Positions 4,420 to 40,337 of a DNA stretch of 64,000 nucleotides are shown here, piece by piece. Source of the DNA: a phage; NCBI GenBank assembly GCA_012813795.1, contig GCA_012813795.1_4087.1. One strand, written 5' to 3'. Under the pieces are notes generated by a model, which ran no database searches, had not been told where the DNA came from, and worked only from the letters and a program-made list of their open reading frames with translations. Each line of letters opens with the position of its first letter. Position 1 is the stretch's first letter. The position numbers and the translations under genes are program-made.

Positions 4420-4815
4420 ATGGCAATAGTTTTTAAAGGTTTCTCTACTCCTGTTGTGGGTAAAACACAAACTCTGTATGATGCTGAGTTGGTGAGACAG
4501 GATTTGATGAACCACTTCAATACAAAGAAAGGTGAAAGAGCATTTGATGCTGATTATGGTTTCATTGCTTGGGATTTGATTTTTGAACTTGATGGTTATA
4601 ATACAAAAAATCTTTTAGAAGCTGACGCTCGTAGAATTATTTCATTAGACCCACGTTTGAATTTAAAAAATCTAACAGTTAGTAATGTTGAATATGGTTA
4701 TCGTTTGGACATAATTTTAGAGTATGTAATGCTTGATAAATTAGAACAACTTACTATAGTATTCGATGCCAGAAGTAATAATAGGATGGCAACGTTTACA
4801 ACATCTAAATTATAA
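4420..4815 (+). CDS. baseplate wedge protein, gp25/GPW-like
   Basis: 131 aa; size and pattern (KGERAFDADYGF...DLIFE) resemble T4 gp25 / P2 W family as recalled; sits between spike-lysozyme and gp6-like genes as in other contractile tails. Confidence 0.65.
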   Translation: MAIVFKGFSTPVVGKTQTLYDAELVRQDLMNHFNTKKGERAFDADYGFIAWDLIFELDGYNTKNLLEADARRIISLDPRLNLKNLTVSNVEYGYRLDIILEYVMLDKLEQLTIVFDARSNNRMATFTTSKL

Positions 4816-4822
4816 TTTACTA

Positions 4823-4848
4823 AGCACTCTTCGGAGTGCTTTTCTTTT
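4823..4848 (+). terminator. rho-independent terminator
   Basis: Hairpin AGCACTC-TTCG-GAGTGCT followed by TTTTCTTTT. Confidence 0.7.
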
Positions 4849-4849
4849 G

Positions 4850-4857
4850 GATAAATA
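4850..4857 (+). promoter_or_regulatory. late-promoter-like box GATAAATA (T4-type TATAAATA-like)
   Basis: Directly after the terminator hairpin and about 55 nt upstream of the gp6-like gene; similar ATAAATA boxes recur upstream of most structural genes. Confidence 0.4.
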
Positions 4858-4914
4858 TTTCTATATAAAATTTCAGTACTGACCCAGTACTTTATTGGCT
4901 TAAAGGATTAATAA

Positions 4915-7900
4915 ATGTCACAACAAAAAAGACAATCTAATTTATACGCGGGGGAAGACTGGACCCAGGTATATGAAAGTTTCTATAAAATCAATCTGAC
5001 AGCTTATGACTTCGACACTATACGTCAAAGTATGATTGATTATTTGCGTCAAACATATCCTGATTCATTCAATGACTGGATTGAGAATGACCAGTTTATC
5101 TTCATTTTAGATACTATTGCAATGCTAGGACAAAACTTAGCGTTTCGTATGGATTTAAACACGCGTGAAAACTTCCTAGATACTGCTAGTCGTCGTGCAT
5201 CTGTGCTTAAATTAGCTAAAATGATCTCCTATTCACCTCGTCGTGCATATCCAGGGCGAGCAACAGCAAAACTAACTGAAATTAAAACGAACCAAGACGT
5301 TCGCAACAGCTATAACGAATCACTTAAAGATAAAATTATCCGTTGGAATGACCCAATGGACTCTAACTGGTATGAGAACTTTATTCTGGTAATGAATAGT
5401 GCATTTGTCAGTACTAACCAGTTTGGTAACCCAGTAAAACGTTTGGATATTAATGGTGTATCTCGTCATTTATATAGAATGAACACTTTACCTATGTCTG
5501 CACCTAATTTACCATTCACGGCTACTGTAAATGGTGAATCCATGACATTTGAGGTCGTAAACCCTGATATTAACGTTATTGGTGTTGATGAAAGACACCC
5601 TGAGCCACAAGAACAGAAATATATTGTGTATCAGAATGATGGTAATGGTTTTAGTTCACCTAATACCGGATTCTTTGTTTATTTTATTCAAGGAACATTG
5701 CAATATCAGGATTTCCAGTACGATGTTAGACAAGAAAACCGTATTCAGGATATTAACGTAGATAATATTAACGAAACTGACGTATGGGTACAGGAAATCA
5801 CAGAAGATGGCATAGTTCGCACTAAATGGACTAAGGTTCCATCAATGGAAAGTATTGCATATAACACAGTAACACGTCAACTTAAAACAATTTATGCTGT
5901 AACTACCCGTGACCGTGACCAAATCAGTATTAAGTTCCCTGATTCACGTAGTGGTGTTGTTCCGCGTGGAACATATCGTGTTTGGTATCGTGTAAGTAAT
6001 GGTGAAACATACAATATCAAAACTGCTGACATTCAAAACAAAAGTGTTAAGTACATTTACAGAACTAAATCACAATCTAACTATGAAAATAGTACATTAG
6101 ATATTAAATTTAGTTTACAATTTGAATCCGACCGTGCACAAAGTGCCGAAACCCTTGAACAAATAAAAGCTCGTGCACCACAAATGTATTATACTCAAAA
6201 CCGTTTTGTGAATGGTGAAGATTATAACATTGCACCATTGAGTCAAGGCAACGCAGTACTGAAATCTAAGGCGATTAACAGGATTTATAGTGGACAATCA
6301 AGATTTATTGATATAAATGACCCAACAGGTAAGTATCAGAACACCGATGTGTTTAGTGATGATGGTGCAATGTACAAAAATGTCACCAAATACAATAAAT
6401 CTGTAAATTTACCAAGTACTAAATCTAATTCTAGTATTGTTATTGATGATATTCAACCATTAATTGGTGAAAATGCTGTTATTCAGAAGTATCAAGCATA
6501 TCCACAGAATACAGTACGTGTTGAATTACAACAAAACTGGGTTCCATCATATAGTTCAAGCTATGCAACTAACACTTATGGTCGTATTGTTGGGGCAACT
6601 GGTACAATTTATGGTGATTATAAAGTTGGTACATTGATTAAATTTGGTAGTAGCTCAAATAATATCGTATGGGCTAGTATTGTTAATGTGTTACCAAACG
6701 GTTTTTATGTTCTAAGTACACCAATTTCTTCCTCAATGCAGATCCAAGAGTATATTAGTCCATATAGAACTCGTTTCAACACTGTTGAAGTTCAAAATAT
6801 AGCTGCAATGTTAGATAAGAAAACAAACTTCATTCTAATTTATGATATTGTATCCACTGCATGGGTTCCTTTGGAGATTACAACTACTAGTGATACTATA
6901 ACATACAATGGTTCGTTGGTGCAGGTGATGGTTAACATCCAATATACTGCTGAAACATGGGAATTTGATTCCAACGGTGTTGAATATGTCTTTGTTGGTG
7001 GTGAAAAAGTTCGTTTTTACTTTGTAAGCTCTAAGAAAATCACTGATATTAGTTCTGGTTCAGTGCAAAGTGATAAAATTGAGATTCTTTCATCGAACTC
7101 TACTAGTACTAGTAACGTAGGTCTAACCAATAACATTGATTTCCAGATTCTGGATACAATAAAACAAGAAAATGGTTATTTGGATGGTTCCAGAGTTGTA
7201 ATTACATCTGAAAGTATGGATAGTAATGGTATTCCATTAAATCCTAACCAATTTCAATCTATCGTCCCTGATTGGACTGGTGAAGATTCTAGAAAGTATG
7301 GTGGTATCTTGGTATTCCAACAAAATGAAGATTTCACTATTTCTTCATTGCCATTACCAAATTCATCCTTCACTATAATGGATTCAACATGGAATTATAC
7401 AATGGATCAGGCATTAGCTGAAACTAATGCGTATAAGAGACAGGAATTCATTCGTAATAATGAAATTCGTTCAACTACATTGAGTGAAGTATATAGTAAA
7501 GGTACGGGTTTTATTATTGCATTCCAATACGAAGGACAATATTACTTCATAGAACAAACCGTTGGTAATAACAATGACCGTTTGGGTGTTCTAATTCAGA
7601 ATATGACTGAAGTTACTGATCCAAGTGCTGCTACACCAGAAACTGCATTCTATCGTTGTATTAAAAACATGGGTACAAGTGTTGACACTAATAAAAAGCT
7701 TAATTATTATGGTTATAAGGATATTACATCTGAACTTACTATAAAAACTAATGCTAGAACGTCCATTAACTTTCACTGGAAACACTATGCACCAGATGAT
7801 AACCGAATCGACCCAAGCAGAACCAACTTAATTGATATGTATGTTTTAACAAACTCATATAAGACTGAAGTTGATATTTGGTTGAAGAATGGTGCTAAGG

Positions 7901-8379
7901 GTGATATGCCGAAACCACCAACCTCTGTTGAATTACAAGATATCTTCAAAGATGTTGAGAAGAAAACAGTAATTAGTGATAGTTTGATATGGCATAGTGC
8001 TGAATACTTACCATTGTTTGGTAATAGTGCTGCACCGGATTATAAAGCTGATTTCAAAGTAGTGAAATTACCGAATAGTACAATGAGTGATGACGAAATT
8101 CGACAAAGTATAGTTTCATTAACTAACCAGTACTTTGCAGTTGAGAACTGGGATTTTGGAGAAAGCTTTTATTATACTGATTTGTGTACATACCTTCATA
8201 CACAACTTGGTAGACATATTAGTACTGTCGTAATTGTAGCTCAAAATCCTAATTCTAAGTTTGGTTCATTGTTCGAGATACCTTCTAGACCTGACCAAAT
8301 ATTCATTAGTACTGCAACAGTTGATAACGTACAAATCGTTAACTCTCTTGCGAAAAGTAATATTAATATTGGTTTTTAA
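4915..8379 (+). CDS. baseplate wedge protein, gp6 / Baseplate_J-like (extended, 1154 aa)
   Basis: N-terminal 120 aa follow the gp6/J-family pattern as recalled from T4 gp6 (YDFDTIRQSMIDYL...FILDTIAMLGQNLAFRMDLNTRENFLDTA); RBS AAAGGA upstream; follows the gp25-like gene. Confidence 0.55.
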   Translation: MSQQKRQSNLYAGEDWTQVYESFYKINLTAYDFDTIRQSMIDYLRQTYPDSFNDWIENDQFIFILDTIAMLGQNLAFRMDLNTRENFLDTASRRASVLKLAKMISYSPRRAYPGRATAKLTEIKTNQDVRNSYNESLKDKIIRWNDPMDSNWYENFILVMNSAFVSTNQFGNPVKRLDINGVSRHLYRMNTLPMSAPNLPFTATVNGESMTFEVVNPDINVIGVDERHPEPQEQKYIVYQNDGNGFSSPNTGFFVYFIQGTLQYQDFQYDVRQENRIQDINVDNINETDVWVQEITEDGIVRTKWTKVPSMESIAYNTVTRQLKTIYAVTTRDRDQISIKFPDSRSGVVPRGTYRVWYRVSNGETYNIKTADIQNKSVKYIYRTKSQSNYENSTLDIKFSLQFESDRAQSAETLEQIKARAPQMYYTQNRFVNGEDYNIAPLSQGNAVLKSKAINRIYSGQSRFIDINDPTGKYQNTDVFSDDGAMYKNVTKYNKSVNLPSTKSNSSIVIDDIQPLIGENAVIQKYQAYPQNTVRVELQQNWVPSYSSSYATNTYGRIVGATGTIYGDYKVGTLIKFGSSSNNIVWASIVNVLPNGFYVLSTPISSSMQIQEYISPYRTRFNTVEVQNIAAMLDKKTNFILIYDIVSTAWVPLEITTTSDTITYNGSLVQVMVNIQYTAETWEFDSNGVEYVFVGGEKVRFYFVSSKKITDISSGSVQSDKIEILSSNSTSTSNVGLTNNIDFQILDTIKQENGYLDGSRVVITSESMDSNGIPLNPNQFQSIVPDWTGEDSRKYGGILVFQQNEDFTISSLPLPNSSFTIMDSTWNYTMDQALAETNAYKRQEFIRNNEIRSTTLSEVYSKGTGFIIAFQYEGQYYFIEQTVGNNNDRLGVLIQNMTEVTDPSAATPETAFYRCIKNMGTSVDTNKKLNYYGYKDITSELTIKTNARTSINFHWKHYAPDDNRIDPSRTNLIDMYVLTNSYKTEVDIWLKNGAKGDMPKPPTSVELQDIFKDVEKKTVISDSLIWHSAEYLPLFGNSAAPDYKADFKVVKLPNSTMSDDEIRQSIVSLTNQYFAVENWDFGESFYYTDLCTYLHTQLGRHISTVVIVAQNPNSKFGSLFEIPSRPDQIFISTATVDNVQIVNSLAKSNINIGF

Positions 8380-8388: not shown

Positions 8389-8412
8389 GGCGGCCTTCGG
8401 GTCGCCTTTTTT
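8389..8412 (+). terminator. rho-independent terminator
   Basis: Hairpin GGCGGCC-TTCG-GGTCGCC followed by TTTTTT, after the gp6-like gene. Confidence 0.65.
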
Positions 8413-8460
8413 ATAGCATAAATAAATCAAATGAATGAACGAATTTATGGAGTCCTATAC

Positions 8461-11400
8461 ATGACTAATAATTTTAAGTTTCTACCAACTAAAACGGCAG
8501 AAGCAGTACAACAGAAGCTTTTCATTAAAAGATTACCTGAATGGATGCAAGGCTTAGAAGACATTCAAAAGGTTAGTGATGATGTAATTCAACAATGGTT
8601 CAATCCAGCGGATAATGAAATCGTTGATGGATATATTGGTGATATGGGTTCTCCTGCTGCATCTGCTAAGATTTTCCTTGACGAATCAACCGTTGAACGT
8701 CAGCTATATCAATTATCAACAGCATATGTGTCTCGTAATGATGACACAAGCATTCGTTCGCTTCAATTTTATGATGATTTGGTTGGCTACATGGAACACT
8801 ATGGCACGTTAACTTCAAACGAGAGCCGTCTATTTTCTGGTAAGTTCTATTCTTGGACACCACCAATTAACCCAAACAAAATGACCAACTATAGTTCTTA
8901 TTTGTGGGATAGTAAAAATAGTTTTGGTATCACATCACCTGACTTTATTGTTATGGAACGTGGTGCTGATAACGGTAACACTTGGTCACTACAGAACTTT
9001 TGGTATACTATTGGACAAACCCTAGAAGATGGTACAGTACTAACTGCTGACATGACGCAGGATACTCGTTTTATTCGTGCACAAGCACCAATCATCGAAT
9101 ATAATAAAAACATCGAATTAATCAACTACGGAACAAATTTCCGTGGTATTGTTGACCTATTCTCTGATACAGTTAAACCAGAAGATATCGTTCAAAAGGA
9201 CGTTAACGATGGTATTCGTATCGATGGTATCATTCCACAAGATGGTATGCGTATTCTATTCACCAGTATCGGTAACGTTGGTGAAAACAACCGCATTTAT
9301 AAAGTTTTTATAAAGAAAATGCAAGATGGTTCTCGTACCTATGGTTTGGCACTAGATCCTGACGAGGAATCAGAAGAACGCCCAAGTGGTGAACCCCATA
9401 ACGGTGATGTAATTTTGGTGCGTGATGGTAATGTATATAAAAATACATCCATGTACTGGAATGGTGTTGATTGGGTTAGAGCACAAACCAAATCTGGTAT
9501 CAACGTGTTCCCACAATTCCAATTGTATGACCGTGATGGTTTCAAATTAAACGACACTACTATGTATCCATCAAGTAATTTCGTTGGATCATCACTATTT
9601 GGTTTCAAAATTAACTATAATTATGGCACTGATAAAGTATACGGTTATAATATTGAATTAGGTAATTATAATTACTACATGTACGAAAACTTTCTTCAAA
9701 GTGTTCGTTATACATATGATCATTTGGGTGTTGAAACAGAAATTTCTGGATTATATTACTATAATGTAGTTGGTAAAGATAATGAACTTCACCTTAAGAC
9801 CGATTGGGTTCGCTCAAAGGAAGATTCAAAACAATTTGTTAAACAAACACCACAAATCGAACATACTGATATGTATCGTGTATTCAATACTGTATTTGAA
9901 ATGGAAAACTTCAAAACTCCATTAGAAGGTATGTATGCATATGTCATTGAAGTTGATCGTACCTATCAATATTACAAAGAAGAACGTCAAACCTATATGG
10001 ATTGGCATGTAATTAGTGGTGAAGGTATTCAAAGTGAACGTTTCAATCGCACATTTGAATTAGCCCAGAAAATTATTGATGGTAAGAGTACTGAAATCAT
10101 TGAAATTCAAGTTGATGGTGTGGATGTAACCGATTATACACGTCATGTATATAATAACAAGGTTCAAAGCATCACTTTAGGGGAAGACGTTACTCTTAAA
10201 GATGAATCAGTAATTCAAATTAGAACATATAGCAGTACGGAAGTACCAAATAAAGAGTTGGGTGCATATGAAATCCCAATTAACTTACAAAATAACCCAT
10301 ACAACGATAATATTCTTTATATCAACCAAAGTAATTTTACATTACATTTTAAAGATATCATTCAAAAGAATATTACCAGTGGTTCAGTTGATGATTTCAA
10401 TGACTACGAAGAGCGTTTGTCTAAAGGTTTAGTAGATAACTCTGTAGGTACTAAGATTATCCAAAACGAAGCATCTATGCTACCGTTAATGGCACATTCT
10501 GCAAATGAAGACATTGACCTATTTGAATCTGTATTGTTTATGCAATCAGAGTACTTTCGTTTTGTAAACAAGTTCAATACACAAATGATTCGTTTGTATA
10601 ATGAGAACCCAGCAAACTTCTTAGCTAATAATGCTTCTAATATTGTTGATGAAATTCTAACAATTATTAATATGGGTCATGATAATACATTCCCATTCTA
10701 TTATGACAACGTGGCAAGTACTTCTGGTTTCATTCGTGCTTTTGTACCACCAACTCCACAGTTCTTAGGTATTTTAAAAGCTCACGTTCCAGAAAAAGCA
10801 ACATTTTTGAATGCTGGTAGTAAGCAAAGCTGCTATAACATCAGCCATACTGGTGCAATCACCAAAGCATACCGTGTAATTAACGGTGTTGATAAAATGG
10901 ATGACGTTATATATGAATTAGAAAATCGAATCTTCAATAGTATTGATGTTATTTTCAAAGATGAAGATTACCAACCTAAGCTAGATGCTTCTGACCTTTT
11001 CCCTACTCCGTATTTTAGAGATACAGAGTATAATGATGAAGAGAAGAAGAACTTACTACTACGTGGTTACATTAACTTCATCGCAACCAATGGTATCAGT
11101 AACAGTTCGCATGATTATGATCCAAATAACTGGATGACTTGGAATTATACTGGAACTTATTACATTGTTAATGGTCAACAAACACAAATACCAGCACGTG
11201 GTTCATGGCGAGCAATCTACACTGACCAATTTGGTACATATCGCCCAGCAACCCATCCGTGGGAAATGTTTGGATTCTCCCAACGTCCGGTTTGGTGGAA
11301 CCAAGAGTACGAACCAACAGCAGTTCAAGTTGGTGAACGCGACAGTGATGTTGTTTATGTATATGAGGCATTGGTTCTCAACGAACAAGGTAACATGGTC

Positions 11401-14400
11401 CCTAGTGGGTTGTGGGATGTTGGTAATGAGAAAGGTGATAGCTCAACTGGAACTATCTTATTTGGTGCACGTAAAGGCCAATATGACAAGTATAAACGTT
11501 TTGGTACACAACCATTCAAGATCACCAAAACAGGCAAGCAGACTGCTTCTGGTGTTGATATTTGCGTTATTGAGTACATTGCACCTGAAGTATTAGGTCT
11601 TGTTTATGGTAGTTTGAATCATCGTGCTGAACCTTGGACCTATGGTGACATGGGTGACATGGAATTCACATACATGAACACCTCAATGTTCGCATATGAT
11701 GAATTAATGTTGTTATTCAAAGCTAAACCTGCACAATTCACCAACTATTTCTGGAATACTCGAAATAATACATTAAAAACTGTATCTGGTAACGAACCAC
11801 AGTTTTTATATGGTGATACTCGTTTACGTTTGAACTTTAACAGTGATACAATAGTACATGGTGAGAATAGCACTCGTGTTATTGGTTATCAAATGATTGT
11901 TAGTAACTATTTGATGTATCAAAACAAAAACATCACTACTAAGTACGGTGAAGTTGTTCGTTCTTCTCATATTAATGTTGGTCATAAACTAGGTGGATTC
12001 ACTAAAGCTGACCAATTAACATTTACGTCAGAAGCAACTGGTCTAATTTCACAAGAAAACCAATCTATCGGGTTAGTTCGTTCTAATAATATTAGAAATG
12101 AGCAAATGAGTGCAATTAAAATTACTTGGACTGGTAGTGCTTACCAAATTGATGGTTATGATTTAGTTTCTGCAACATTCAATTATAAATTGCCTGTTAA
12201 AAACGGTCATAAAGTAACTTTGAAAGTTGATAATCGTAATGTTGTTCATTATAATGAGTGGAAAAATGATGCATCAATCCCTTACGGAACTTTGATGAAT
12301 ACATTCCAAGAAGTTTACACATTTATTTGTGGTTATGGTGAGTATCTCAAACAACATGGTTGGATTTTTGAAGAAGTTGATGAATCTGGTATCCAACAGG
12401 ACTGGAATACAATTGCAAAAGACTTTTTAATCTGGAGTCAACAACAATTGAGTACTGGTGAATTCATTTCATGTACTCCATCTGCAATTAAAGCCAAATT
12501 TGGTACAGATTTTGGTTCAGTACAGTCAATTACACAAAATAGTGGTGGTGTTTGGTCACTATTAGATGATTCAAACCAAGGTATCCGTCAATTTGAGATT
12601 GAAACATCTCGTATTGGTAATATATTCACGGTGAGAACTACTGAAGAATCAAATAAACGCATGGCACTTATTCGTTTAAGTATCAGTTCATATGAACATG
12701 CTGTTATTTTTGATGATCAGACTATTTTCGGTGACTATATCTACGAACCAACCTATGGTGCAGTTCAAGAATTGATTAAATTGTATGGATATATCACTGG
12801 TTCATGGTCTGGTCGCTTACAAGCTCCTGGATTTATCATCCTAGAAGCTGGAACATTACCATCATTTGAAACATTGGTATCAAATTTCCAACAGTATTAT
12901 GATAATGAAACTCCAGTTAGTGATGTTCAATTGAATGAACTATCAAATCACTTAATTGGTTATCAGTCTCGCGATTACTTACAACGTATGATCACCAACG
13001 AGCCTGGTAGAATTGATTTCTATAAAGGTTTCATCCACGATAAAGGTACTAACCAAGTACTAGAAAAAGTACTACGTGTATCTAAATCATATAATACTGA
13101 TGAGTATAAAGCATTACAAGAATGGGCATTCCGAGTTGGTTCTTATGGTAACATTGATGGGGTTAAAAATCTTCAATTTAAACTAATTAATAATGAGTTT
13201 AAACAACAACCACAAATGATTTCGTTTGACCGCTATGCTGATAAGGTAGAGTCAGAGAATGAGATCGTATATTATGGTGAAATTGGTGAAGATTCACGCT
13301 GGATTAGTCGTCCTAAAGGTAAATTCTCATTACCTATGCGTAGTGGAAGAAGTGAGAACATCCAATTACCTAATATTGGCCCAGTAACCTTAGATGAAAT
13401 TGATTATACCACATTGAATTATGAAACGGCTAATCAAGATCGCATTAGTTACACGAATAACTTTGGCAAAATACCAACATCTGTTTGGATGTTCCAAGAT
13501 ATTAATAACGAATGGAATATATATGATTTGGTAGACACTGGTATTACAATGGTTTCCATTACACCAATAGAGAATAGCGACCCATATGCTGAGCAATATT
13601 GTAAAGTACTATTGTCTGATGACATCCCACTAATGGATGGTGATTATTACTATTTCGTTGATGAAACAAACTTTATGCCTGACGCACTACGTGAAGAAGG
13701 TCAATATTACACTTCTGGACTAAATCCAAAAGTTATGGTTGTGCCATTTGACACTTCTATCACTATTGACTTCTCAACTGTAGAATCAGCACCACGTTTG
13801 TATCGTTATGTTAGTAGATTCAGCACTCAACAAGAACGTGATGATTATATTGCTAAAAAATACAGTTACAGTGCACCTGAAAGTACTTTGTTTGACCGTC
13901 CTACTACGTATGATGAAAGAACAAACATCACTGCATTGTATTTGAATGTGTTTGACCCAATCAATGGTGTTATTCCTGGTGTAGCAATGCAAGATGTTGA
14001 TTTCATCTCCCCTGTTGATCCAGCACAATATAGCAGTAATGGTGAACTATTACAAGCATGGGGTGCTGAAAAGGTAGGTAAGGTATGGTGGAACACTAGT
14101 ACTGCATTCTATCTGGATTATACCCGTCCAATCTTTGATGAGGATGGAAACGTTGATGTAAAAGCAACTAATGAATATAAGCGTTATAATTGGGGTAAAT
14201 TATTACCACACAGTGTTATTGATGTTCTAGAATGGGTTAGTTCACCAGTAGAACCATACAACTGGGAAAAATATTGTGCAGAACAAGCCAATAAAAATAA
14301 AAACAACACCATGTATCTCCCAAGTGGGGTTGCGATGGATGATAACTATAGTTCATCTATGGAATATGATCCAATCACCGATACATATGTAGTTCGTTAT

Positions 14401-17400
14401 TATTTCTGGGTTCGTAATACAATTTATGTTCCACCAATGACTACTCGTAGTAAGTCTTGTACTGATATTGCACGTATTATTCAAGATCCAACACAATTGA
14501 ATGTTCCTTGGTTTGCACCTATTAACGAAAATAGTTTCATTCTAAGTAATATGCAATTTGAAGTTAATGATGATACAAGCATTTTGACAATTTCATATAG
14601 AAATGACAATATTGAAGTCCTGAAGCATGACCAATATCAACTTTGTAAAGAAGGTGATAGTTATGACTTTAACCCAGATATTTGGAATTCTCTATGGAAC
14701 TCACTAATTGGTCAAGAAACTACTTCAACTGGTGTTGTAAATGAAATAGTTTATCCTAAAGTTGAAACTGGTTTGGGTTCTAATAAAACTTGGTTCCAGA
14801 ATGTTATTGAAGCTCGTCGTGCGTTTGTTGAGAGTGCTAATAACTTTTACCGTTCACATAACATCACAACTAACAGTGTTGTTATGAATGATGTCTTTAA
14901 TGTTAAAACATTAAAAATGAACCCGAATGATATTACATTCCGTGTTCTATCATTTAACAATGAATTGGTAATTGCACCAGAAGACAACCGCTTCAAAGAG
15001 AATGATGCAGTATTTGTAAGTTCCATTGGAACATTACCAGCACCATTATCTTCAAGTTCTGTATATTTTGTTCACATTGATCCAAATGGATACATTCAAT
15101 TGATGAACAGTCCAAGCACAGTTGGTAGTACTGTCACAATCACTCTAGAAAATAGAGGCGAAGGTCAACACAAGATGATTAAACAAGCTGACTTCATTGA
15201 ATCACTTGGTACATCGTTGGATATGACACAGTACTGGAATCTAGCTGATTGGTACGATACTGGATACGATAGTAACACTGAATATACACAAGAAGTTAGT
15301 TTAGATGACGCAAACACTAAAAATTACCAAATTGGTGATATTATCCGTGTAACTGATAGTGATGGCGTTTGGACATTATACATCAAGACTGCATCTCGCA
15401 ATAATGTATACTGGAGAGCTATTGGACGTGAGAATAGTACTGTTGAATTGAATTCAATGTTATATTCTAGTTACAATGTTTATAATGATGATGGTTCTTT
15501 GAATTCTCATGAGGTTAACGTTCGTAATGCGTTAGCGTTGTTGAAAAATTCATTCGATTTATATCAAAGTAATATTGTATTTGATATGGTTAAGTACGTG
15601 CACACTGAACAAAGTGTTGTTGATTGGGTATTCAAAACCTCCTATATCTATATCGTAGGTTTGGAGCAATCACTAGTACAGAACTACTCAAATGACAACT
15701 TGATTAATCAAATTGTTGAGTACTTCGAGGAAGTTAAACCATACAGAACCAAAATCCGTTCTCAAATCGAACAGAAAACTTCTGATGATGATTTGATTAA
15801 TGGTATTAGTAATGACCTTGACCCAGATGGCTATATTTTAGTTGATGGTGTGTGGGTTAAGACTGAAAAAGACATTTGGGATTTAGAATATGCACAATTC
15901 AATGATGTAACTCAACGTTGGGAAAAGATTGGTTCACTACCAAGTGACTTTATCACACCTAATAGACGATTCCAAGAAATAGACGTTATTATGCATTATG
16001 ATAATATTCAATGTGAACAGTATGATAGTAATTATACAATTGATGAGTTGAAATCAACCAATAGTAAGTATCAATCCAACGAGGCTGATGTAGGTAATAA
16101 TTATGAATTACAGAGATATGTTTATACATTCCCTGAATATGATAATAATACCTTAATTTCACAAATTGGTATTGAAATGACTACCAAATATTCAGATTTG
16201 GATATTAGTAATGGTGTTATTAAAGGAATTGATGCATGGTATAAAGCACATTCAACTGATATCGCATCAACTGACCAATTTACTACTGATTTGGAGCAGG
16301 TAACTGCTGATACAAACAATAGTAATATTTTAGAAGATGTTAAAAAATATATTCAATATAATACATTAGCAACTCGTGTGAAAATGTTTAATAATATATC
16401 TGATGATATGGTTTCTAATGAGATTGGTTGTCCGTTTAAGGGTACAAACTATAATGATAATCCTAATACTCGCCTCCCATTCGGGTTTAGTGCAAGTAGT
16501 GATTATAACTATGGTTATTTTGAGATTAGTATTGAACTATATGAAAAATATGTCGATATGATCAAGAAAAATCACCCAGAGTTTACAAACGAAGACCAAA
16601 TTCGTAACATTCTTGAAATAGAATATGGTGTTTATTGCTACAAGTATGATACCACATTAAATGACCGTTATTATTCTGATACCGTTCATGTTTTATCTGC
16701 TATGCGACAAACATTTAATAAGAATATTCTAGATCATTATTATGTTGCTAGAGAAATCTTAAGTAATCGTTCAGTTGAGAAGTATGCTTTTGTTATGATG
16801 CCAAGAAAGTATGTGTATGTTGTGAATGCGGCGGGTGAATATCTACCGATTCCTGAAAGTTACAGCATATCTGATTTCATGGAAGACTTGTTCATAACAA
16901 CCGGAGAATCAGTTGTATTGGCTGAAATTGATTTAAATGATTTACCACAAGACCAGAATAATCCTATGTATTCTGCATACATTGAAGTACTGGAAAGTAT
17001 TAATACCGCGAAATATTTCAATGATATGAACGCATTCGATAACTTGGCATTGGAATCACAAACCAAGTCCATTAAATGGGAAGTTAAAGATAGTGAGATT
17101 GATCCTTATATCATCGACATTTCTGAACTAAACCCATCAGGAAGAACAATGGCACAATTGCGTTTCACTGTTGATGGTTATGGTTTCGATGAAGTTGCTC
17201 AAGAGCAATTAAAAGACACGAGTAGATTCCAAATTGAGGGTATGATCGTACAGAACCCTTACAATATGTCAGAAGCAATTGTAAGTATTCCATCATATGA
17301 TATTGTCATCGAGAATATGGGTAAAGATGTGTTTAAAGATTCAGAAAAATACTTCTTCCCAATTTCAGAAATTAAAACAATTACTGAAATCAAGGTTCAT

Positions 17401-18438
17401 GATGAAGGATTGAAAAATGGTGATAAGGTTGTGATTTTCACACCAGATGGTGAAGATTATGTACGATTCCAAGATGGTGAATGGGTAACTATACTAAGTG
17501 CTAGTAAAATCCAAACCTCCAAAAAACCAAAACTGTACACTGTGCGTGTATTGGGTAACGGAAACGTTGAGTTGGTTGATGGTAACGGTGTTGCATTGAT
17601 GTTTGATAGTGTAACTAAGCGTGAAAGTAATGAGCGTTTTTATACATTATCAATGAACTTAGTTAGAATCCGCACTTTCCAAGACCCTGAGTTTGATGAC
17701 AATGGCCTTAAACTATATGAAAATAATCGTCATTATAGTATACATGCATTGAACTATGAAGTATTCTATGACGAAACATTATATGGTGGTAAATTCAATG
17801 ATGGTATCACATCTGATGAGATTGATTTGTGGTTAGTTTCCAATGAGATTTTTGAAGTTGATGGTATTACAATTGATAATGGTTATAATCAACCAATCAC
17901 TGGTAAAGGTGTTCTAGGTGAACTAGTACGAGCTAAAATGACTGATGGTATTGAAATCACTGTATTTGAATACGATGTTGATGTTATTCAACCAGTACTA
18001 AGTTATGATCGCGTGTGGCAGTATGCACAACCAGTGGTCAATAACACGTTCATCAAAGAGGTAGGATGTAATGTTATTAACATTACAACTGTTGAAGATG
18101 AGGCAATCACTTATGTTGCTAAACCTCGTTCAATAAGCCCATATATCATTACTGATTCAGTACTGTCAGGTGCTGCGGCACAGAATGATGATATTATTGT
18201 GGTTGGATATGAGAAGGTTCAGGTAAGAAATACTGATCGTCTATTACGTGGTGTCATGTATAGTGCGGAGCATAATTTCACAAAAGGAACTTCTTATAGC
18301 TTCAATGGATTGAACTTAGGAAGCATTGATAAGTTTACTCAATATCAAAACTTCTATCCACCAATTCCATTAGAGACATTCAGAAATGGATTGTCAATTA
18401 CTGGAACCGATATCGAAAAACTTTTGAATATTCAATAA
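8461..18438 (+). CDS. giant virion-associated structural protein (about 3300 aa), function unassigned
   Basis: Single uninterrupted ORF; ORF track begins at ATG 8431 but ATG 8461 has a GGAG RBS and lies downstream of an ATAAATA late-promoter-like box (8418-8424). Last gene of the baseplate operon, followed by a strong terminator. Confidence 0.6.
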   Translation: MTNNFKFLPTKTAEAVQQKLFIKRLPEWMQGLEDIQKVSDDVIQQWFNPADNEIVDGYIGDMGSPAASAKIFLDESTVERQLYQLSTAYVSRNDDTSIRSLQFYDDLVGYMEHYGTLTSNESRLFSGKFYSWTPPINPNKMTNYSSYLWDSKNSFGITSPDFIVMERGADNGNTWSLQNFWYTIGQTLEDGTVLTADMTQDTRFIRAQAPIIEYNKNIELINYGTNFRGIVDLFSDTVKPEDIVQKDVNDGIRIDGIIPQDGMRILFTSIGNVGENNRIYKVFIKKMQDGSRTYGLALDPDEESEERPSGEPHNGDVILVRDGNVYKNTSMYWNGVDWVRAQTKSGINVFPQFQLYDRDGFKLNDTTMYPSSNFVGSSLFGFKINYNYGTDKVYGYNIELGNYNYYMYENFLQSVRYTYDHLGVETEISGLYYYNVVGKDNELHLKTDWVRSKEDSKQFVKQTPQIEHTDMYRVFNTVFEMENFKTPLEGMYAYVIEVDRTYQYYKEERQTYMDWHVISGEGIQSERFNRTFELAQKIIDGKSTEIIEIQVDGVDVTDYTRHVYNNKVQSITLGEDVTLKDESVIQIRTYSSTEVPNKELGAYEIPINLQNNPYNDNILYINQSNFTLHFKDIIQKNITSGSVDDFNDYEERLSKGLVDNSVGTKIIQNEASMLPLMAHSANEDIDLFESVLFMQSEYFRFVNKFNTQMIRLYNENPANFLANNASNIVDEILTIINMGHDNTFPFYYDNVASTSGFIRAFVPPTPQFLGILKAHVPEKATFLNAGSKQSCYNISHTGAITKAYRVINGVDKMDDVIYELENRIFNSIDVIFKDEDYQPKLDASDLFPTPYFRDTEYNDEEKKNLLLRGYINFIATNGISNSSHDYDPNNWMTWNYTGTYYIVNGQQTQIPARGSWRAIYTDQFGTYRPATHPWEMFGFSQRPVWWNQEYEPTAVQVGERDSDVVYVYEALVLNEQGNMVPSGLWDVGNEKGDSSTGTILFGARKGQYDKYKRFGTQPFKITKTGKQTASGVDICVIEYIAPEVLGLVYGSLNHRAEPWTYGDMGDMEFTYMNTSMFAYDELMLLFKAKPAQFTNYFWNTRNNTLKTVSGNEPQFLYGDTRLRLNFNSDTIVHGENSTRVIGYQMIVSNYLMYQNKNITTKYGEVVRSSHINVGHKLGGFTKADQLTFTSEATGLISQENQSIGLVRSNNIRNEQMSAIKITWTGSAYQIDGYDLVSATFNYKLPVKNGHKVTLKVDNRNVVHYNEWKNDASIPYGTLMNTFQEVYTFICGYGEYLKQHGWIFEEVDESGIQQDWNTIAKDFLIWSQQQLSTGEFISCTPSAIKAKFGTDFGSVQSITQNSGGVWSLLDDSNQGIRQFEIETSRIGNIFTVRTTEESNKRMALIRLSISSYEHAVIFDDQTIFGDYIYEPTYGAVQELIKLYGYITGSWSGRLQAPGFIILEAGTLPSFETLVSNFQQYYDNETPVSDVQLNELSNHLIGYQSRDYLQRMITNEPGRIDFYKGFIHDKGTNQVLEKVLRVSKSYNTDEYKALQEWAFRVGSYGNIDGVKNLQFKLINNEFKQQPQMISFDRYADKVESENEIVYYGEIGEDSRWISRPKGKFSLPMRSGRSENIQLPNIGPVTLDEIDYTTLNYETANQDRISYTNNFGKIPTSVWMFQDINNEWNIYDLVDTGITMVSITPIENSDPYAEQYCKVLLSDDIPLMDGDYYYFVDETNFMPDALREEGQYYTSGLNPKVMVVPFDTSITIDFSTVESAPRLYRYVSRFSTQQERDDYIAKKYSYSAPESTLFDRPTTYDERTNITALYLNVFDPINGVIPGVAMQDVDFISPVDPAQYSSNGELLQAWGAEKVGKVWWNTSTAFYLDYTRPIFDEDGNVDVKATNEYKRYNWGKLLPHSVIDVLEWVSSPVEPYNWEKYCAEQANKNKNNTMYLPSGVAMDDNYSSSMEYDPITDTYVVRYYFWVRNTIYVPPMTTRSKSCTDIARIIQDPTQLNVPWFAPINENSFILSNMQFEVNDDTSILTISYRNDNIEVLKHDQYQLCKEGDSYDFNPDIWNSLWNSLIGQETTSTGVVNEIVYPKVETGLGSNKTWFQNVIEARRAFVESANNFYRSHNITTNSVVMNDVFNVKTLKMNPNDITFRVLSFNNELVIAPEDNRFKENDAVFVSSIGTLPAPLSSSSVYFVHIDPNGYIQLMNSPSTVGSTVTITLENRGEGQHKMIKQADFIESLGTSLDMTQYWNLADWYDTGYDSNTEYTQEVSLDDANTKNYQIGDIIRVTDSDGVWTLYIKTASRNNVYWRAIGRENSTVELNSMLYSSYNVYNDDGSLNSHEVNVRNALALLKNSFDLYQSNIVFDMVKYVHTEQSVVDWVFKTSYIYIVGLEQSLVQNYSNDNLINQIVEYFEEVKPYRTKIRSQIEQKTSDDDLINGISNDLDPDGYILVDGVWVKTEKDIWDLEYAQFNDVTQRWEKIGSLPSDFITPNRRFQEIDVIMHYDNIQCEQYDSNYTIDELKSTNSKYQSNEADVGNNYELQRYVYTFPEYDNNTLISQIGIEMTTKYSDLDISNGVIKGIDAWYKAHSTDIASTDQFTTDLEQVTADTNNSNILEDVKKYIQYNTLATRVKMFNNISDDMVSNEIGCPFKGTNYNDNPNTRLPFGFSASSDYNYGYFEISIELYEKYVDMIKKNHPEFTNEDQIRNILEIEYGVYCYKYDTTLNDRYYSDTVHVLSAMRQTFNKNILDHYYVAREILSNRSVEKYAFVMMPRKYVYVVNAAGEYLPIPESYSISDFMEDLFITTGESVVLAEIDLNDLPQDQNNPMYSAYIEVLESINTAKYFNDMNAFDNLALESQTKSIKWEVKDSEIDPYIIDISELNPSGRTMAQLRFTVDGYGFDEVAQEQLKDTSRFQIEGMIVQNPYNMSEAIVSIPSYDIVIENMGKDVFKDSEKYFFPISEIKTITEIKVHDEGLKNGDKVVIFTPDGEDYVRFQDGEWVTILSASKIQTSKKPKLYTVRVLGNGNVELVDGNGVALMFDSVTKRESNERFYTLSMNLVRIRTFQDPEFDDNGLKLYENNRHYSIHALNYEVFYDETLYGGKFNDGITSDEIDLWLVSNEIFEVDGITIDNGYNQPITGKGVLGELVRAKMTDGIEITVFEYDVDVIQPVLSYDRVWQYAQPVVNNTFIKEVGCNVINITTVEDEAITYVAKPRSISPYIITDSVLSGAAAQNDDIIVVGYEKVQVRNTDRLLRGVMYSAEHNFTKGTSYSFNGLNLGSIDKFTQYQNFYPPIPLETFRNGLSITGTDIEKLLNIQ

Positions 18439-18440: not shown

Positions 18441-18476
18441 AAAAAGGAGAGCCAATGGCTCTCCTTTTCTTTTTCT
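18441..18476. terminator. bidirectional rho-independent terminator between convergent giant gene and clpA
   Basis: AAAAA GGAGAGCC-AAT-GGCTCTCC TTTTCTTTTTCT; A-run upstream and T-run downstream. Confidence 0.8.
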
Positions 18477-20761
18477 TACACTACAGATGGGGTTTTAACT
18501 TGACGCTTTGGTTTGATAGCCAATTTGCCGTTAATTACATCAAATGTTACGTTTCCACCATTTACCAGAGAACCACACAGCATTTCTTTAGCCAGAGGAA
18601 CACGGATATTTTGTTCAATGGTACGTTTCATTGGACGTGCACCCATTCCAGGCTGAACACCATTTGCTTCTAACCATTCACGGGCCGCTTTAGTAATAGT
18701 TACTTTCACGCCACGTTCTTTGATTTGTTCATTTAGACCAGCCATGAACTTATCGATAACACTTTGGATAGCTTCACTAGATAGCTCATTGAACTTCACG
18801 ATACTATCGATACGGTTTAGGAATTCAGGTGGTAGGAAAGCTTTCACTGCTTTCTCTTGTGCAGTTTCACCACCACTTAAACCCAGACTGCGTTTGTTTG
18901 CATCTGCTGCACCTAGGTTGGTAGTCATAATAACTGTTACGTTGTTAAAGTAAACAGTTTTACCTTGAGAACCAGTTAGATGACCTTCATCCAGAACCTG
19001 TAGGAAGGTTAGCAGTACTTTAGGGTGAGCTTTCTCAATTTCGTCCAGAAGTAGGACAGCATTTGGGAATTGCTCAATCTTATCCAACAGTAGACCATTA
19101 CCAGTGTCATGACCAACATAACCTGGAGGTGAACCAATTAGTTTTGCAACGGTATGTTCTTGTGAAAATTCAGACATATCGAAGCGAATCAGTTCAGACC
19201 CCATTGCATCTGCTAGTGCTTTGGTAATTTCAGTTTTACCAGTACCAGATGGACCGACAAACATGAATGCACCTTGAACACTTGCTTTCTCACGCAGACC
19301 TGCACGGGCAACCATTACGTTATCTACCAATTTCTCAACTGCTTCTTCTTGACCGAATACACGGCTACGAAGTGCTGCTGGTAGTGACTTCATGCGTTCA
19401 GTTTCAGTACATGCCACTACGTTGATATCCAAGTTTGCAATTCCAGAAACAACTTCTTGAATTGTGCGTAGTGAAATTACGTTATCAGAATCATCACGTG
19501 AACGTTTCTTAGCTGCTGCTGCATCCATCAGGTCGATTGCTTTGTCTGGGAAGTGCTTGTTCTTCAGGAACTTATCACTCAAAGACACAATCGCATCCAT
19601 TGCTTCAGCACTGAAAGTTACGTTATGGAATTTCTCATAAGTACCTTGTAGACCATTTACAATCGCACGAGTTTCTTCAATTGTTGGCTCAACTACGTCA
19701 ATTTTCATGAAACGACGAGTTAGTGCACTATCTTTCTCGATATTTTTACGGTATTCATCGTAAGTAGTTGCACCGATTACACGAATCTCACCACGAGATA
19801 GTGCTGGTTTCAACATATTACTCATGTCCATTGAGCCGTTGCTTGCAGAACCTGCACCAACCATGATATGGATTTCATCGATGAACACGATTGTATTTTC
19901 ACGCTTCTTCAGTTCTTTGAGAAGATTATCAATACGCTCTTCGAATTCACCACGGTACTTAGTTCCAGCAGTTAGTGCACCAACGTTGAGAGACAAAATC
20001 TCAATGTTTTGTAGATGTTCTGGTACATTACCATCAACGATTGCTTGTGCTAAACCATCAACAATCTGAGTTTTACCAACACCAGCTTCACCAGTAAGAA
20101 TAGCATTCTTTTTAGTTTTACGTGCTAATGTTTCAATCAGTGCGTCCAGTTCTTTTTGACGCCCAATCATTGGGTCCAGTTTGCCATCTTTAGCCAACTG
20201 TGTTAGGTTGGTCGTGTAATCTTCAATTGATTTCTGTTTTGATGCAGGTTGTTGTTGAGCCACCTTTTTCTCCCCAGTAGGTTCATCAGCGATGCTTTGT
20301 AGGTTAATTTCAGAATCAAGAGATTCTACATATTTCTGAAGAGTACGGGCCGCTTCAGTGCGAGTTACACCCTCTTCCAACAATGCTGCTTCTAATGCAG
20401 TGTTTGGGAATGACAAACATTCAAACAGTACAAAGAATGCATCAATTGAGAAATCGTCACGTTTGAGTTGTTCGATGACAGATTTCTTAGATAGTTCTTG
20501 CATTACACGATTGACGATTAGTGTAGTGCGATTAACTTCTTCCCCCATAGTGCTGCGTGGTGCGTGTGGAACATTGGTATTTTTCAGATATTCAATCAAG
20601 CGATCACGCACTTTCGTTGCGTCAACGTTCATTGTCCCAAATACATCAATAATGCTATCCACTGTCAGCACTGTAGCACTGATGTGATCGATTGTCAAGA
20701 AAGTATGACCCATAGAGGTTGCAAGGTCGTCGCTGCTTTTGAATAGCTGTGTTAAATTCAT
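18476..20761 (-). CDS. clpA: ATP-dependent Clp protease ATP-binding subunit ClpA homolog (two-ring AAA+ unfoldase)
   Basis: 761 aa; N-domain, D1 Walker A GEAGVGKT and Walker B IVFIDEIH, D2 Walker A GPSGTGKT and Walker B LLLDEIEKAH, and a hydrophobic-Gly-Leu tripeptide (KRSLGL) at the position of the ClpP-docking loop; alignable with bacterial ClpA over full length. RBS GGAGAG upstream. Confidence 0.9.
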   Translation of the reverse strand: MNLTQLFKSSDDLATSMGHTFLTIDHISATVLTVDSIIDVFGTMNVDATKVRDRLIEYLKNTNVPHAPRSTMGEEVNRTTLIVNRVMQELSKKSVIEQLKRDDFSIDAFFVLFECLSFPNTALEAALLEEGVTRTEAARTLQKYVESLDSEINLQSIADEPTGEKKVAQQQPASKQKSIEDYTTNLTQLAKDGKLDPMIGRQKELDALIETLARKTKKNAILTGEAGVGKTQIVDGLAQAIVDGNVPEHLQNIEILSLNVGALTAGTKYRGEFEERIDNLLKELKKRENTIVFIDEIHIMVGAGSASNGSMDMSNMLKPALSRGEIRVIGATTYDEYRKNIEKDSALTRRFMKIDVVEPTIEETRAIVNGLQGTYEKFHNVTFSAEAMDAIVSLSDKFLKNKHFPDKAIDLMDAAAAKKRSRDDSDNVISLRTIQEVVSGIANLDINVVACTETERMKSLPAALRSRVFGQEEAVEKLVDNVMVARAGLREKASVQGAFMFVGPSGTGKTEITKALADAMGSELIRFDMSEFSQEHTVAKLIGSPPGYVGHDTGNGLLLDKIEQFPNAVLLLDEIEKAHPKVLLTFLQVLDEGHLTGSQGKTVYFNNVTVIMTTNLGAADANKRSLGLSGGETAQEKAVKAFLPPEFLNRIDSIVKFNELSSEAIQSVIDKFMAGLNEQIKERGVKVTITKAAREWLEANGVQPGMGARPMKRTIEQNIRVPLAKEMLCGSLVNGGNVTFDVINGKLAIKPKRQVKTPSVV

Positions 20762-20828: not shown

Positions 20829-20869
20829 CCTAGTAAATACAGATATACCGATTTATTTTGGAGAACAAA

Positions 20870-22366
20870 ATGGCATACAGAATGTGGAAAAAAGGTAGAA
20901 CCAATGATTATAAATTCATAGATTCTGCCATTGCTGAACAATACAATATTGGTGGCGTAGACATGTGGCTTTATGCCTTTGTCGGTGCTAAACCATCAAC
21001 AACTCCTAACGACTATTCTTACGGTGGTGATTATATCACTGATGGTTCCGCTGCGTCAAGTATTGGTGACCTAATTTTTGGTGAAACCTCAAATCGTAGT
21101 TACAATCTAGAGGCTATCACACTTAGTTGTGTTTATCAAGTACAAGAAGCAACACCTGATTTAAAAATTCCTGGGTTGTTCTTTAACTTCAACACAATGG
21201 ACATTACAGTTCATTATAACACAATGATGCAGCGATTGGGAAGAAAAATTATGCCTGGTGATGTAATTGAACTTCCAAACCTTCGTGATTTCGATGTTGT
21301 TGGTAAAGATTCAGGTTTAAACCGTTTTTACGTAGTTCAGGACGGCTTTAGAACATCTGAAGGTTACTCTGCAACATGGCAACATCACATTTACAAAATT
21401 CGTGTCAAGCCTATTACCGATTCACCTGAGTACGCGGACTTACTTACTAATAATGATTATCCAGACAACCCAGATGACCCAAATAATGGTAATGGTAACA
21501 GTGGTTCTAATGGTTCTTCACCAAACAGCAGTTATGATAACGAAATGGATATCATGAACCGTATTATAATGCAAGCTGATGATGAAGTCCCTTATATCCA
21601 CTTCACAAATGAACATATATACGATGATAGACCAGATACAACCGATTTGTCAAAGTTTGTTCTTAATGGATATGACTTCCCAGAAGAACCAGCTAACAAA
21701 ATGTACTTCTTGAAGAAAACTTTACCAGTACTGAAAGAGAAAGTCAACAATTCATGGGAAAATGTTTCAGTACCATATGGAACAACGTTTCCACGTAAAC
21801 CATCTGATGGTGATTTCTTCTATAAAGAGAATGATTCAGATGTTACGGGATATTCCCTGTATCAATATGACAAATCTGTCAAAAAGTGGCTCAATTGTGA
21901 TGTAGAATACTCAACAGGTGATGTTCCACCTAAAAATGCTGAAGATTTTTACATTCAATATGAAAAACCAACAATGTACCAGTACTTAGATGGTACATGG
22001 CAAGTTCCACCAGATACACATGTTAACTTACCTTTCAGTTCTAACAGTGTATATGGTAACATAGACTCGCAACAAGATTCAAGACCTAAAATTCCACCTG
22101 CTCGCGGCACTGTGCAAGAAGGGGACACGTTCCCATCTGATCCTACTGATGGTGAATACTTCTATCGCACGGATTACAACCCTGTAACTCTTTGGGAATA
22201 CAGTGAAGTTAAAAAGTCTTGGGTAATCTTTGATTATGGTGGACGTAAACCGTGGGAAGGTGCTGATTTGGCCCTAACCGAGTTCGTTAACAGTCCTAAT
22301 CGTGTCCCATTACACGACGCGGCAAAACCAAACACTCTATACCGTGCAAAAGGGGATAAAGAATGA
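20870..22366 (+). CDS. putative tail fiber-associated protein with two tail-fibre-repeat-like modules
   Basis: ORF track start 20858 is TTG; ATG 20870 has a GGAG RBS. Two internal repeats (TFPRKPSDGDFFYKENDSD...KKW and TFPSDPTDGEYFYRTDYNP...KKSW) resemble the phage tail fibre repeat family. Confidence 0.5.
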   Translation: MAYRMWKKGRTNDYKFIDSAIAEQYNIGGVDMWLYAFVGAKPSTTPNDYSYGGDYITDGSAASSIGDLIFGETSNRSYNLEAITLSCVYQVQEATPDLKIPGLFFNFNTMDITVHYNTMMQRLGRKIMPGDVIELPNLRDFDVVGKDSGLNRFYVVQDGFRTSEGYSATWQHHIYKIRVKPITDSPEYADLLTNNDYPDNPDDPNNGNGNSGSNGSSPNSSYDNEMDIMNRIIMQADDEVPYIHFTNEHIYDDRPDTTDLSKFVLNGYDFPEEPANKMYFLKKTLPVLKEKVNNSWENVSVPYGTTFPRKPSDGDFFYKENDSDVTGYSLYQYDKSVKKWLNCDVEYSTGDVPPKNAEDFYIQYEKPTMYQYLDGTWQVPPDTHVNLPFSSNSVYGNIDSQQDSRPKIPPARGTVQEGDTFPSDPTDGEYFYRTDYNPVTLWEYSEVKKSWVIFDYGGRKPWEGADLALTEFVNSPNRVPLHDAAKPNTLYRAKGDKE

Positions 22367-28056: not shown

Positions 28057-28073
28057 TAAGGAGATATTTCAAA

Positions 28074-40332: not shown

Positions 40333-40337
40333 AATTA

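Follow-up and report, generated by a model that had tools for sequence, protein, structure and literature searches.

The 64,000-nt window analyzed in this work (the whole stretch examined of contig GCA_012813795.1_4087.1, GenBank assembly GCA_012813795.1) carries, within a phage baseplate module, a single gene of about 10 kb encoding a giant virion structural protein, and this gene is the subject of the present report. A megablast search placed the window in Asteriusvirus, among the 121Q/PBECO4-like (121Q/RaK2-like) jumbo myophages. The local gene order is gp53-like, 716-aa structural protein, gp5-like spike/lysozyme, gp25-like, gp6-like and giant gene; on the upstream side, Escherichia phage A4 encodes a 243-aa virion protein (A4_587) and then the gp53-like protein (Pfam Phage_gp53). 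The position directly after a gp6-like wedge gene in a baseplate module, which had been recognized in a first-pass annotation made from the sequence of the window, was confirmed by this gene order. Residues 26-126 of the gp6-like protein match phrog_219 ('baseplate wedge subunit'), the corresponding gene of 121Q is annotated as T4 gp6-like, and distant relatives carry PF27647 at this place. The coordinates of all features are collected in Table 1, with the residues of the giant protein numbered from the ATG at position 8461.

Table 1. Genes, regulatory signals and protein regions of the giant gene and its surroundings in the window.
Feature	Position	Strand	Description
716-aa virion protein gene	ends at 1220		begins before the window; adjoins the gp5-like gene
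gp5-like spike gene	1220-3883		887 aa; OB fold, M23 and lysozyme domains
Extra lysozyme gene	3918-4406		162 aa
gp25-like baseplate wedge/sheath-initiator gene	4420..4815	+	131 aa; Pfam GPW_gp25 (E 3.9e-9); phrog_43
gp6-like baseplate wedge gene	4915..8379	+	1154 aa; phrog_10646 over full length
Terminator-like GC-rich hairpin (GGCGGCCTTCGGGTCGCC) with T-run	8389..8413 (stem-loop 8389-8406)	+	between the gp6-like and giant genes
ATAAATA late-promoter-like motif	8418..8424	+	also upstream of the orthologues in A4, 121Q and RaK2
Shine-Dalgarno sequence GGAG	8449..8452	+	8 nt upstream of ATG 8461; kept in A4, 121Q and RaK2
Giant virion structural protein gene	8461..18438	+	3325 aa plus stop, 382 kDa, isoelectric point 4.6; longest ORF from 8431, 30 nt earlier
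N-terminal family-signature domain, aa 1-150	8461..8910	+	from alignment A7 and secondary structure of the AlphaFold2 model
Family-wide conserved core, aa 1-2455	8461..15825	+	BLASTP coverage by distant homologues ends at ~aa 2455; invariant columns (alignments A1 and A4)
Conserved but low-confidence stretch, aa 1409-1549	12685..13107	+	EHAVxFDNxTIFGD ... WNGRLxAPGF ... FYxGFIRxKGT; many invariant columns
Insertion hot-spot, ~aa 1705-1817	13573..13911	+	inserts of up to ~1300 aa in distant homologues, some with FG-GAP repeats
Most conserved Trp/Tyr-rich block, aa 1810-2138	13888..14874	+	DPxxGxIPG ... VWWDTS ... NWGKLLP ... YYFWVKN ... PWFAPI
Long helix ending the core, aa 2414-2437	15700..15771	+	YFEEVKPYRTKIRSQI (EVKPYRTKIR); predicted, low confidence
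Subclade-specific C-terminal region, aa 2456-3325	15826..18435	+	870 aa; faster evolving than the core
Terminator-like hairpin, 12-bp stem	18442..18468	+	just past the giant stop codon; common to the convergent ClpA-like gene
Convergent ClpA/ClpB-like AAA+ gene	18476-20761	-	761 aa; AAA_2, AAA, ClpB_D2-small
Structural protein gene	20858-22366		
gp15-like tail completion protein gene	22363-23706		

Between positions 8431 and 18438 (+) there is one open reading frame (ORF) of 3335 codons, starting with ATG and devoid of internal stops; as stop codons make up ~7.1% of random codons at the composition of the window, the chance of an open run of this length is ~1e-107. In megablast the gene showed 94.7% nucleotide identity over its full length to A4_580 of Escherichia phage A4 (annotated as 'structural protein'), and its first 76% showed ~77.6% identity to orthologues in 121Q and ~65 other jumbo phages. 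The orthologues of A4 (3325 aa, 97.5% amino acid identity) and 121Q (3323 aa, 72.9%) are intact, and tblastn found a single collinear copy per record in 72 to 89 jumbo-phage records. The ratio of nonsynonymous to synonymous substitution rates (dN/dS) against A4 is 0.045 for the whole gene, 0.037 for the core and 0.072 for the C-terminal part, by which measure the gene is under strong purifying selection. The likelihood that several genes were merged by sequencing or annotation errors is therefore negligible, since the A4 and 121Q orthologues are intact and dN/dS is that low; moreover, the same unbroken length recurs in metagenomes and in dozens of genomes that were sequenced independently, and a 382-kDa product was identified by mass spectrometry (MS) for the orthologue phAPEC6 gp245. 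The uninterrupted ~10-kb frame reported in the first-pass annotation is thus real, and an artefact concealing frameshifts or stops, which had been kept in mind there, is excluded by the comparative data.

Past the stop codon of the gp6-like gene (8379), the signals are arranged in the order of a hairpin with a T-run (8389-8413), ATAAATA (8418-8424), ATG (8431), GGAG (8449-8452) and a second ATG (8461). The hairpin search found this one site against 0.1 expected, and a hairpin lies upstream of the giant gene also in A4, 121Q and RaK2, with stem sequences that differ in the latter two. For the related phage CBB, ATAAATA has been reported as the consensus of late genes (PMC5259590). The window contains 14 copies, of which 12 are located at most 57 nt (6-57) in front of the ATG of an ORF with 80 aa or more, compared with 21% of random positions, and by this distribution the heptamer behaves as a late-promoter motif. 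Its copies include those at 3880, 3896, 4851, 8418, 26505, 29027 and 35524 (+) and at 54630, 51565, 47859, 47339 and 26476 (-). The T4 late promoter TATAAATA, considered as the relevant motif, was rejected, being depleted in the window (one copy against 8.4 expected).

These signals bear on the choice between the two start codons. The ATAAATA copy at 8418-8424 lies 6 nt from ATG 8431 and 36 nt from ATG 8461, and for the other 11 ORF-proximal copies the distance to the ATG is 15 to 57 nt. Both the PHROG profile and the homologues start only at residue 11 of the longer form, the A4, 121Q and RaK2 orthologues are all annotated from the ATG equivalent to 8461, and in RaK2 the upstream ATG runs at once into a stop. 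Because of these four observations, together with the spacing of GGAG, translation almost certainly starts at ATG 8461, which gives a protein of 3325 aa. Two ATGs are indeed present, as had been noted earlier, but the choice between them, then described as ambiguous, can be settled in favor of the second. The arrangement of hairpin, ATAAATA and Shine-Dalgarno sequence is conserved in A4, 121Q and RaK2, and in this lineage the giant gene looks like a late transcription unit of its own within the baseplate module. Of the earlier description of the gene as the last one of a baseplate operon, membership in the module therefore stands, whereas a single operon does not agree with a private ATAAATA motif and hairpins on both sides.

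Orthologues of the giant protein are 121Q gp582, RaK2 ORF070w (YP_007007225), CBB_236, phAPEC6 gp245, A4_580 and, probably, PA5oct gp128. The identity amounts to 98% with A4 and the metagenomic cluster P0001, 73% with 121Q and ~58% with CBB; in length, position and flanking regulatory signals the orthologues match the gene described here, and nothing essential differs. Two of them have been found in virions by MS: phAPEC6 gp245 (381.88 kDa, 'hypothetical protein'), with 17 peptides and 7.6% coverage, adjoins gp244, a 'baseplate wedge' (PMC7247149), and CBB_236, with 21 peptides and 7.7% coverage, adjoins the 'baseplate wedge' CBB_237 (PMC5259590). Incorporation into the virion, for which proteomics had been proposed as a check, is thus already published for orthologues. 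In the CBB study 'the largest gene' served as the anchor for genome comparisons (PMC5259590), and PA5oct gp128, which adjoins the wedge gene gp129, is among the two largest proteins of that phage (PMC7318152). Otherwise, the orthologues are labelled in the literature only as 'structural protein' or 'the largest gene', and our literature search retrieved no high-resolution baseplate structure for the RaK2-like clade and no functional statement on the giant protein. The refuting case named earlier, that this is a well-characterized giant protein, therefore applies insofar as it is catalogued and well known, but not as regards its function. It can be stated firmly that the protein is real, strongly constrained, virion-associated (from the MS of orthologues) and encoded in the baseplate module.

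The protein matches phrog_10938 ('virion structural protein') with E = 0, residues 11-3332 of the longer form being aligned with positions 1-3324 of the 3324-position profile, i.e., collinearly over the full length. A search of 5.8 billion proteins gave 170 matches, and the 120 listed were all 3100-5200 aa long and mostly full-length. A search of 1.84 billion representatives of 50% identity clusters with a profile of the first 150 aa (alignment A7) matched 1381 of them, 602 with E below 1e-30, and each of the 150 hits listed was matched at its extreme N-terminus. Complete family members have 3000-6281 aa, and the short hits of the N-terminal profile are most likely contig fragments. Among cultured phages, tblastn with the block of aa 1800-2140 gave one match in each of 89 records; apart from the 86-kb record of phiKp_21, these are 88 genomes of 286-490 kb. 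Represented among them are RaK2-like phages of enterobacteria, PA5oct-like phages of Pseudomonas, a Vibrio phage, Atu_ph07 (Agrobacterium), Phosso (Sinorhizobium) and RsoM2USA (Ralstonia). On these searches, the giant protein firmly marks out a very large family that occurs in jumbo phages only.

Within the N-terminal domain, the motifs LP25-26 and GYIG57-60 are conserved, the former within the predicted helical residues 9-47, and the helices are followed by a small alpha/beta unit ending in YSWxPPIxxDKxxNYxxYYW. Besides the hot-spot given in Table 1, mapping of distant homologues on the alignment revealed insertions after aa 149 and around aa 470-590. In the helix that ends the core, E2424, K2426, P2427 and Y2428 (the EVKPY motif) are invariant. 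It was also observed that aa 2400-2455 (15658-15825), like aa 1409-1549, are among the most conserved stretches of the family, yet have a model confidence below 50. Among the Pfam domains of distant members, FG-GAP occupies the insert at aa 1705-1817 and CBM5/12 either inserts or the C-terminal region; IPT/TIG is also present, and one distant member carries a T7 tail-fibre N-terminal domain in its C-terminal region; the inserts and the C-terminal region are therefore probably exposed. 

The homologues of the C-terminal 870 aa were judged by tblastn and a local hidden Markov model (HMM). The most distant homologues give no BLASTP coverage of this region, which can be aligned solely inside the RaK2-like subclade and with the nearest relatives of that subclade; the HMM reached only a group at 36-40% identity. 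In all RaK2-like phages, whatever their host, tblastn found the region in one place per genome, collinear and 38-57% identical. In the comparison with 121Q, six of its eight full 100-aa bins show 45-62% identity, one shows 74% and the last 25 aa show 28%, as against 61-86% in the core.

No internal repeats were detected by self-BLAST, and no low-complexity, transmembrane or hydrophobic stretches were found across the protein. Pfam gave nothing above threshold for the whole protein, and over the searches with it and with 23 N-terminal domains the best hit was RGI_lyase (E 0.23), which is not credible. The statements of the first-pass annotation that simple repeats and recognizable catalytic motifs are missing, and that the protein is not merely a repetitive fibre, hold true in these analyses. 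A tail fibre or receptor-binding protein (e.g., an analogue of the short fibre) that sets the host range could account for the faster evolution of the C-terminal third, for the carbohydrate-binding, adhesin-type and T7-fibre N-terminal domains of distant homologues, and for the fibre genes located downstream in distant relatives. We consider it improbable, as repeats, coiled coil, beta-helix, depolymerase or S74 chaperone domain were not found (the fold searches covering the modelled 2400 aa), the two structural models described below are chains of globular domains, and the adsorption of RaK2 has been assigned to gp526-534 and gp098 (PMC10253068). Furthermore, across phages of at least six host genera (Escherichia, Klebsiella, Erwinia, Serratia, Yersinia and Xanthomonas) the C-terminal region, with its dN/dS of 0.07, stays collinear at 38-57% identity, so that it is not swapped with the host.

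AlphaFold2 models were built from 22-sequence alignments for aa 1-1200 and aa 1256-2455, i.e., for ~2400 residues. The first has a mean predicted local distance difference test (pLDDT) score of 83.9 and a predicted template modelling (pTM) score of 0.76; for the second the values are 71.8 and 0.49, with residues 295-1144 of the model mostly at 75-90. Both models consist of small beta-rich domains strung together, with helical domains in between, and neither an enzyme fold nor a beta-helix was evident in the modelled residues. Three conserved stretches are predicted with low confidence, namely the N-terminal helical residues 9-47, which are conserved across the family, aa 1409-1549 (residues 154-294 of the second model; pLDDT 24-50 despite sequence conservation) and the helix of aa 2414-2437 (residues 1159-1182 of the second model; pLDDT below 50). 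Such a combination is the usual signature of segments that would become ordered only in a complex; aa 1409-1549 may thus be regarded as a candidate inter-subunit interface and the helix of aa 2414-2437 as a second candidate assembly interface.

The best, but weak, matches of the N-terminal model in fold searches were podophage tail and fibre N-terminal domains, while those of the middle model were Ig-like adhesin/pilin domains and FNR or UBA1-type beta-barrels; for the middle model, Foldseek against the PDB gave a best E of 0.07 and negligible TM-scores. The scores are too low and the aligned stretches of the models too short for a claim of homology. All that they show is that the giant protein is composed of small domains of the types seen in baseplate, fibre-adaptor and adhesin proteins. 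At the sequence level, neither the single sequence (phmmer) nor the full-length family profile produced a hit at E ≤10 among all PDB chains, and the N-terminal profile matched no PDB sequence apart from a chance hit to eS17 (E 0.057).

These results also bear on the possibility that the protein is internal or ejected, i.e., a tape measure, a component of an ejectosome or a packaged enzyme such as the N4 virion RNA polymerase, to which it is comparable in size; the coverage of ~7.6% in the MS of orthologues would likewise fit a low-abundance virion protein of this kind. Nevertheless, the models are beta-rich and not helix-dominated, transmembrane and low-complexity segments are lacking, no similarity to any PDB chain, polymerases included, was found, the gene sits beside wedge genes and not in a head or tail-tube module, and distant members carry surface-type domains. 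Such a role is, in our opinion, highly improbable, and the earlier suggestion of a giant ejection protein is unlikely in view of the constant place of the gene in the baseplate module and the surface-type domains of distant homologues.

The reading that we favor, and hold to be moderately probable, is that the 382-kDa protein is a structural protein of the tail baseplate and the positional equivalent of T4 gp7, Mu gp48, P2 gpI and TssG of the type VI secretion system, enlarged to a scaffold of both the wedge and the baseplate periphery. A gp7-type protein is expected to be encoded directly downstream of the gp6/J/TssF homologue in the wedge block, and this is the place of the giant gene, the gp6-like protein being the expected partner of such a protein. 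In P2 and Mu, the gene for the gp6/J homologue is followed by that for the gp7/I/gp48 homologue. In T4, the gene that follows gp6 in the wedge block is likewise that of gp7, the wedge initiator (1032 aa, PDB 5IV5), a large multi-domain protein which, in the (gp6)2-gp7 unit, links the inner baseplate to the periphery and the fibre-bearing proteins; the giant protein is about three times its size. P1 BplA has been described as 'baseplate wedge protein 3', the equivalent of Mu gp48 and T4 gp7 (PMC12810830).

Three lines of evidence argue for this assignment. Firstly, the order of gp25-like, gp6-like and giant genes is shared by RaK2-like phages and by distant relatives: gp5-like, gp25, gp6-like (PF27647) and giant genes follow one another in three of the four distant metagenomic contexts, all three with fibre genes (Collar or Peptidase_S74 domains) downstream of the giant gene, and the ATG of the giant gene overlaps the stop codon of the gp6-like gene, or directly adjoins it, in distant relatives. 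Secondly, the N-terminal helical motif is conserved but modelled with low pLDDT, which fits a motif that orders only on assembly. Thirdly, distant members carry surface-type inserts. In addition, for CBB, T4 homologues were found by BLAST for gp5, gp6, gp25 and gp53 and none for gp7 to gp12 (PMC5259590), and since recognizable homologues of gp7 to gp12 are missing from the clade, something else must build the periphery.

According to this proposal, one copy of the giant protein would be present per wedge, i.e., six per virion. Its N-terminal domain of ~150 aa would dock on the gp6-like dimer, the predicted helices at residues 9-47 joining the N-terminal helices of gp6, and the remaining ~2300 aa of the core, composed of small beta-sandwich or beta-barrel and helical domains, would form the intermediate and peripheral baseplate, which is made in T4 by gp7, gp8, gp10 and gp11. 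The core may also supply docking sites for the branched tail fibres, and the faster-evolving C-terminal 870 aa may constitute the distal, outward- or host-facing part. A role in host interaction or fibre docking at the baseplate periphery is plausible.

It should be stressed that several observations weigh against the equivalence with gp7. The family profile aligned by hhalign with T4 gp7 gave a probability of 0.3%, and with a 13-member profile of the gp7 family 0.09%; in the latter case, the top alignment paired the EVKPYRTKIR helix with residues 846-870 of T4 gp7, which at this non-significant probability is a lead only. The Pfam domains of the T4 gp7 family (PF21428, PF21456 and PF21427) were not detected in the giant protein at E ≤1, and, as far as these comparisons go, it has no significant similarity to any gp7-type protein. 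The position after gp6 is in itself suggestive only, and in the fourth distant context (P0109) the giant gene has no gp6-like gene beside it. Finally, the 243-aa virion protein encoded upstream of the gp53-like gene (A4_587) has the size of a minimal gp7 and could be the true equivalent. The minimal orthologues of gp7 (Mu gp48, P2 gpI, P1 BplA, XM1 gp17 and TssG) have 180-480 aa, in contrast to the 3325 aa of the giant protein, and their structural match to it is too weak for homology. Comparisons of the family profile with T4 gp8, gp10 and gp11 were also null (0.1-0.4%). The idea of the first-pass annotation that the protein might be a fusion of known baseplate or fibre components is not supported, considering the null results for gp7, gp8, gp10, gp11 and the PDB and the small size and weakness of the fold matches.

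A different arrangement is one in which a small protein (e.g., the 243-aa one) pairs with gp6 and the giant protein lies outside it as a scaffold of the peripheral baseplate and fibre network, similar to T4 gp10/gp11 or to the baseplate arm of phage 812. This seems doubtful to us, because the strict adjacency of gp6-like and giant genes and the overlapping stop and start codons in distant relatives are typical of a gp6-gp7 pair, and because the 243-aa protein is likewise devoid of similarity to gp7-type families. Peripheral scaffolds are known from phiKZ (gp27 and gp87; PDB 9xqd and 9xqs) and CBA120 (the gp10-like N-terminal domains of TSP4); these are built of several separate proteins of 250-1000 aa each and show no sequence relationship to the giant protein. 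Returning to the enlarged gp7-type wedge protein, we tentatively suggest, as a possibility, that in this very large and for the most part uncultivated clade of jumbo myophages one chain of 3000-6300 residues replaces the multi-protein intermediate and peripheral baseplate of the T4 type, that its domains mostly lack solved relatives, and that the periphery evolved by insertion of domains into one chain and not through additional subunits, with aa 1409-1549 and aa 2400-2455 as new interfaces.

The gene itself is not a discovery, since annotations of it exist for dozens of genomes and the detection of its orthologues in virions is already on record. What is new here is the resolved start with the local regulatory signals, the architecture of the family (N-terminal signature domain, 2450-aa core, insertion hot-spots and subclade-specific C-terminus), its size and distribution, and the documented absence of relatives among solved structures.

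Several other features of the window were recorded. In the gp5-like spike, an OB domain, a weak match to M23 peptidase and a C-terminal lysozyme were recognized; the 162-aa lysozyme is a free-standing paralogue of the spike lysozyme domain and matches positions 727-885 of phrog_13211. Between the gp25-like and gp6-like genes, 121Q has an HNH homing endonuclease (L002 7721-8485), at which place the window (4815-4915) and A4 have a spacer of ~100 nt with ATAAATA. The adjacency of the ClpA/ClpB-like double AAA+ gene is kept in A4, 121Q and RaK2 (ORF069), but not in distant relatives; as a speculation, its product might serve giant structural proteins as a chaperone or unfoldase.

Farther downstream, in comparison with A4 (L001 31254-33425), ~1.8 kb is absent at 27688-28073 from the middle of the gene for a 'colanic acid-degrading protein' (tail fibre/depolymerase). 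The breakpoints lie at 27710-27719, where the flanking alignments overlap by 10 bp. Of the colanic acid-degrading protein, the short ORF left behind retains nothing but the initial residues and ~115 residues at the C-terminus, and both this ORF and the next gene (28074-) start with ATGGCAGTTTTTTCTAA. A second very large late gene (29091-34634; 1847 aa), with ATAAATA upstream, corresponds to A4_569, the 'long tail fiber proximal subunit', and, by the A4 annotation (A4_560/A4_561), genes for an ATPase and a VWA-domain protein are located inside the structural region at 39373-43191 (-).

With its 382 kDa, the giant protein ranks among the largest single proteins that cultured phages encode, and its gene is the signature structural gene of the group of jumbo phages comprising RaK2, 121Q, PA5oct and Atu_ph07, several of which are in therapy development. 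Its N-terminal domain of 150 aa provides a sensitive means of recognizing this clade in metagenomes. The protein is also well suited to cryo-electron microscopy, since ~2400 of its residues are modelled confidently yet resemble no solved structure. If the proposed role is correct, it would explain how a 35-nm baseplate with hyper-branched fibres is built without recognizable homologues of gp7 to gp12, and it would provide a new model of baseplate evolution, in which one giant chain takes up domain inserts instead of many subunits.

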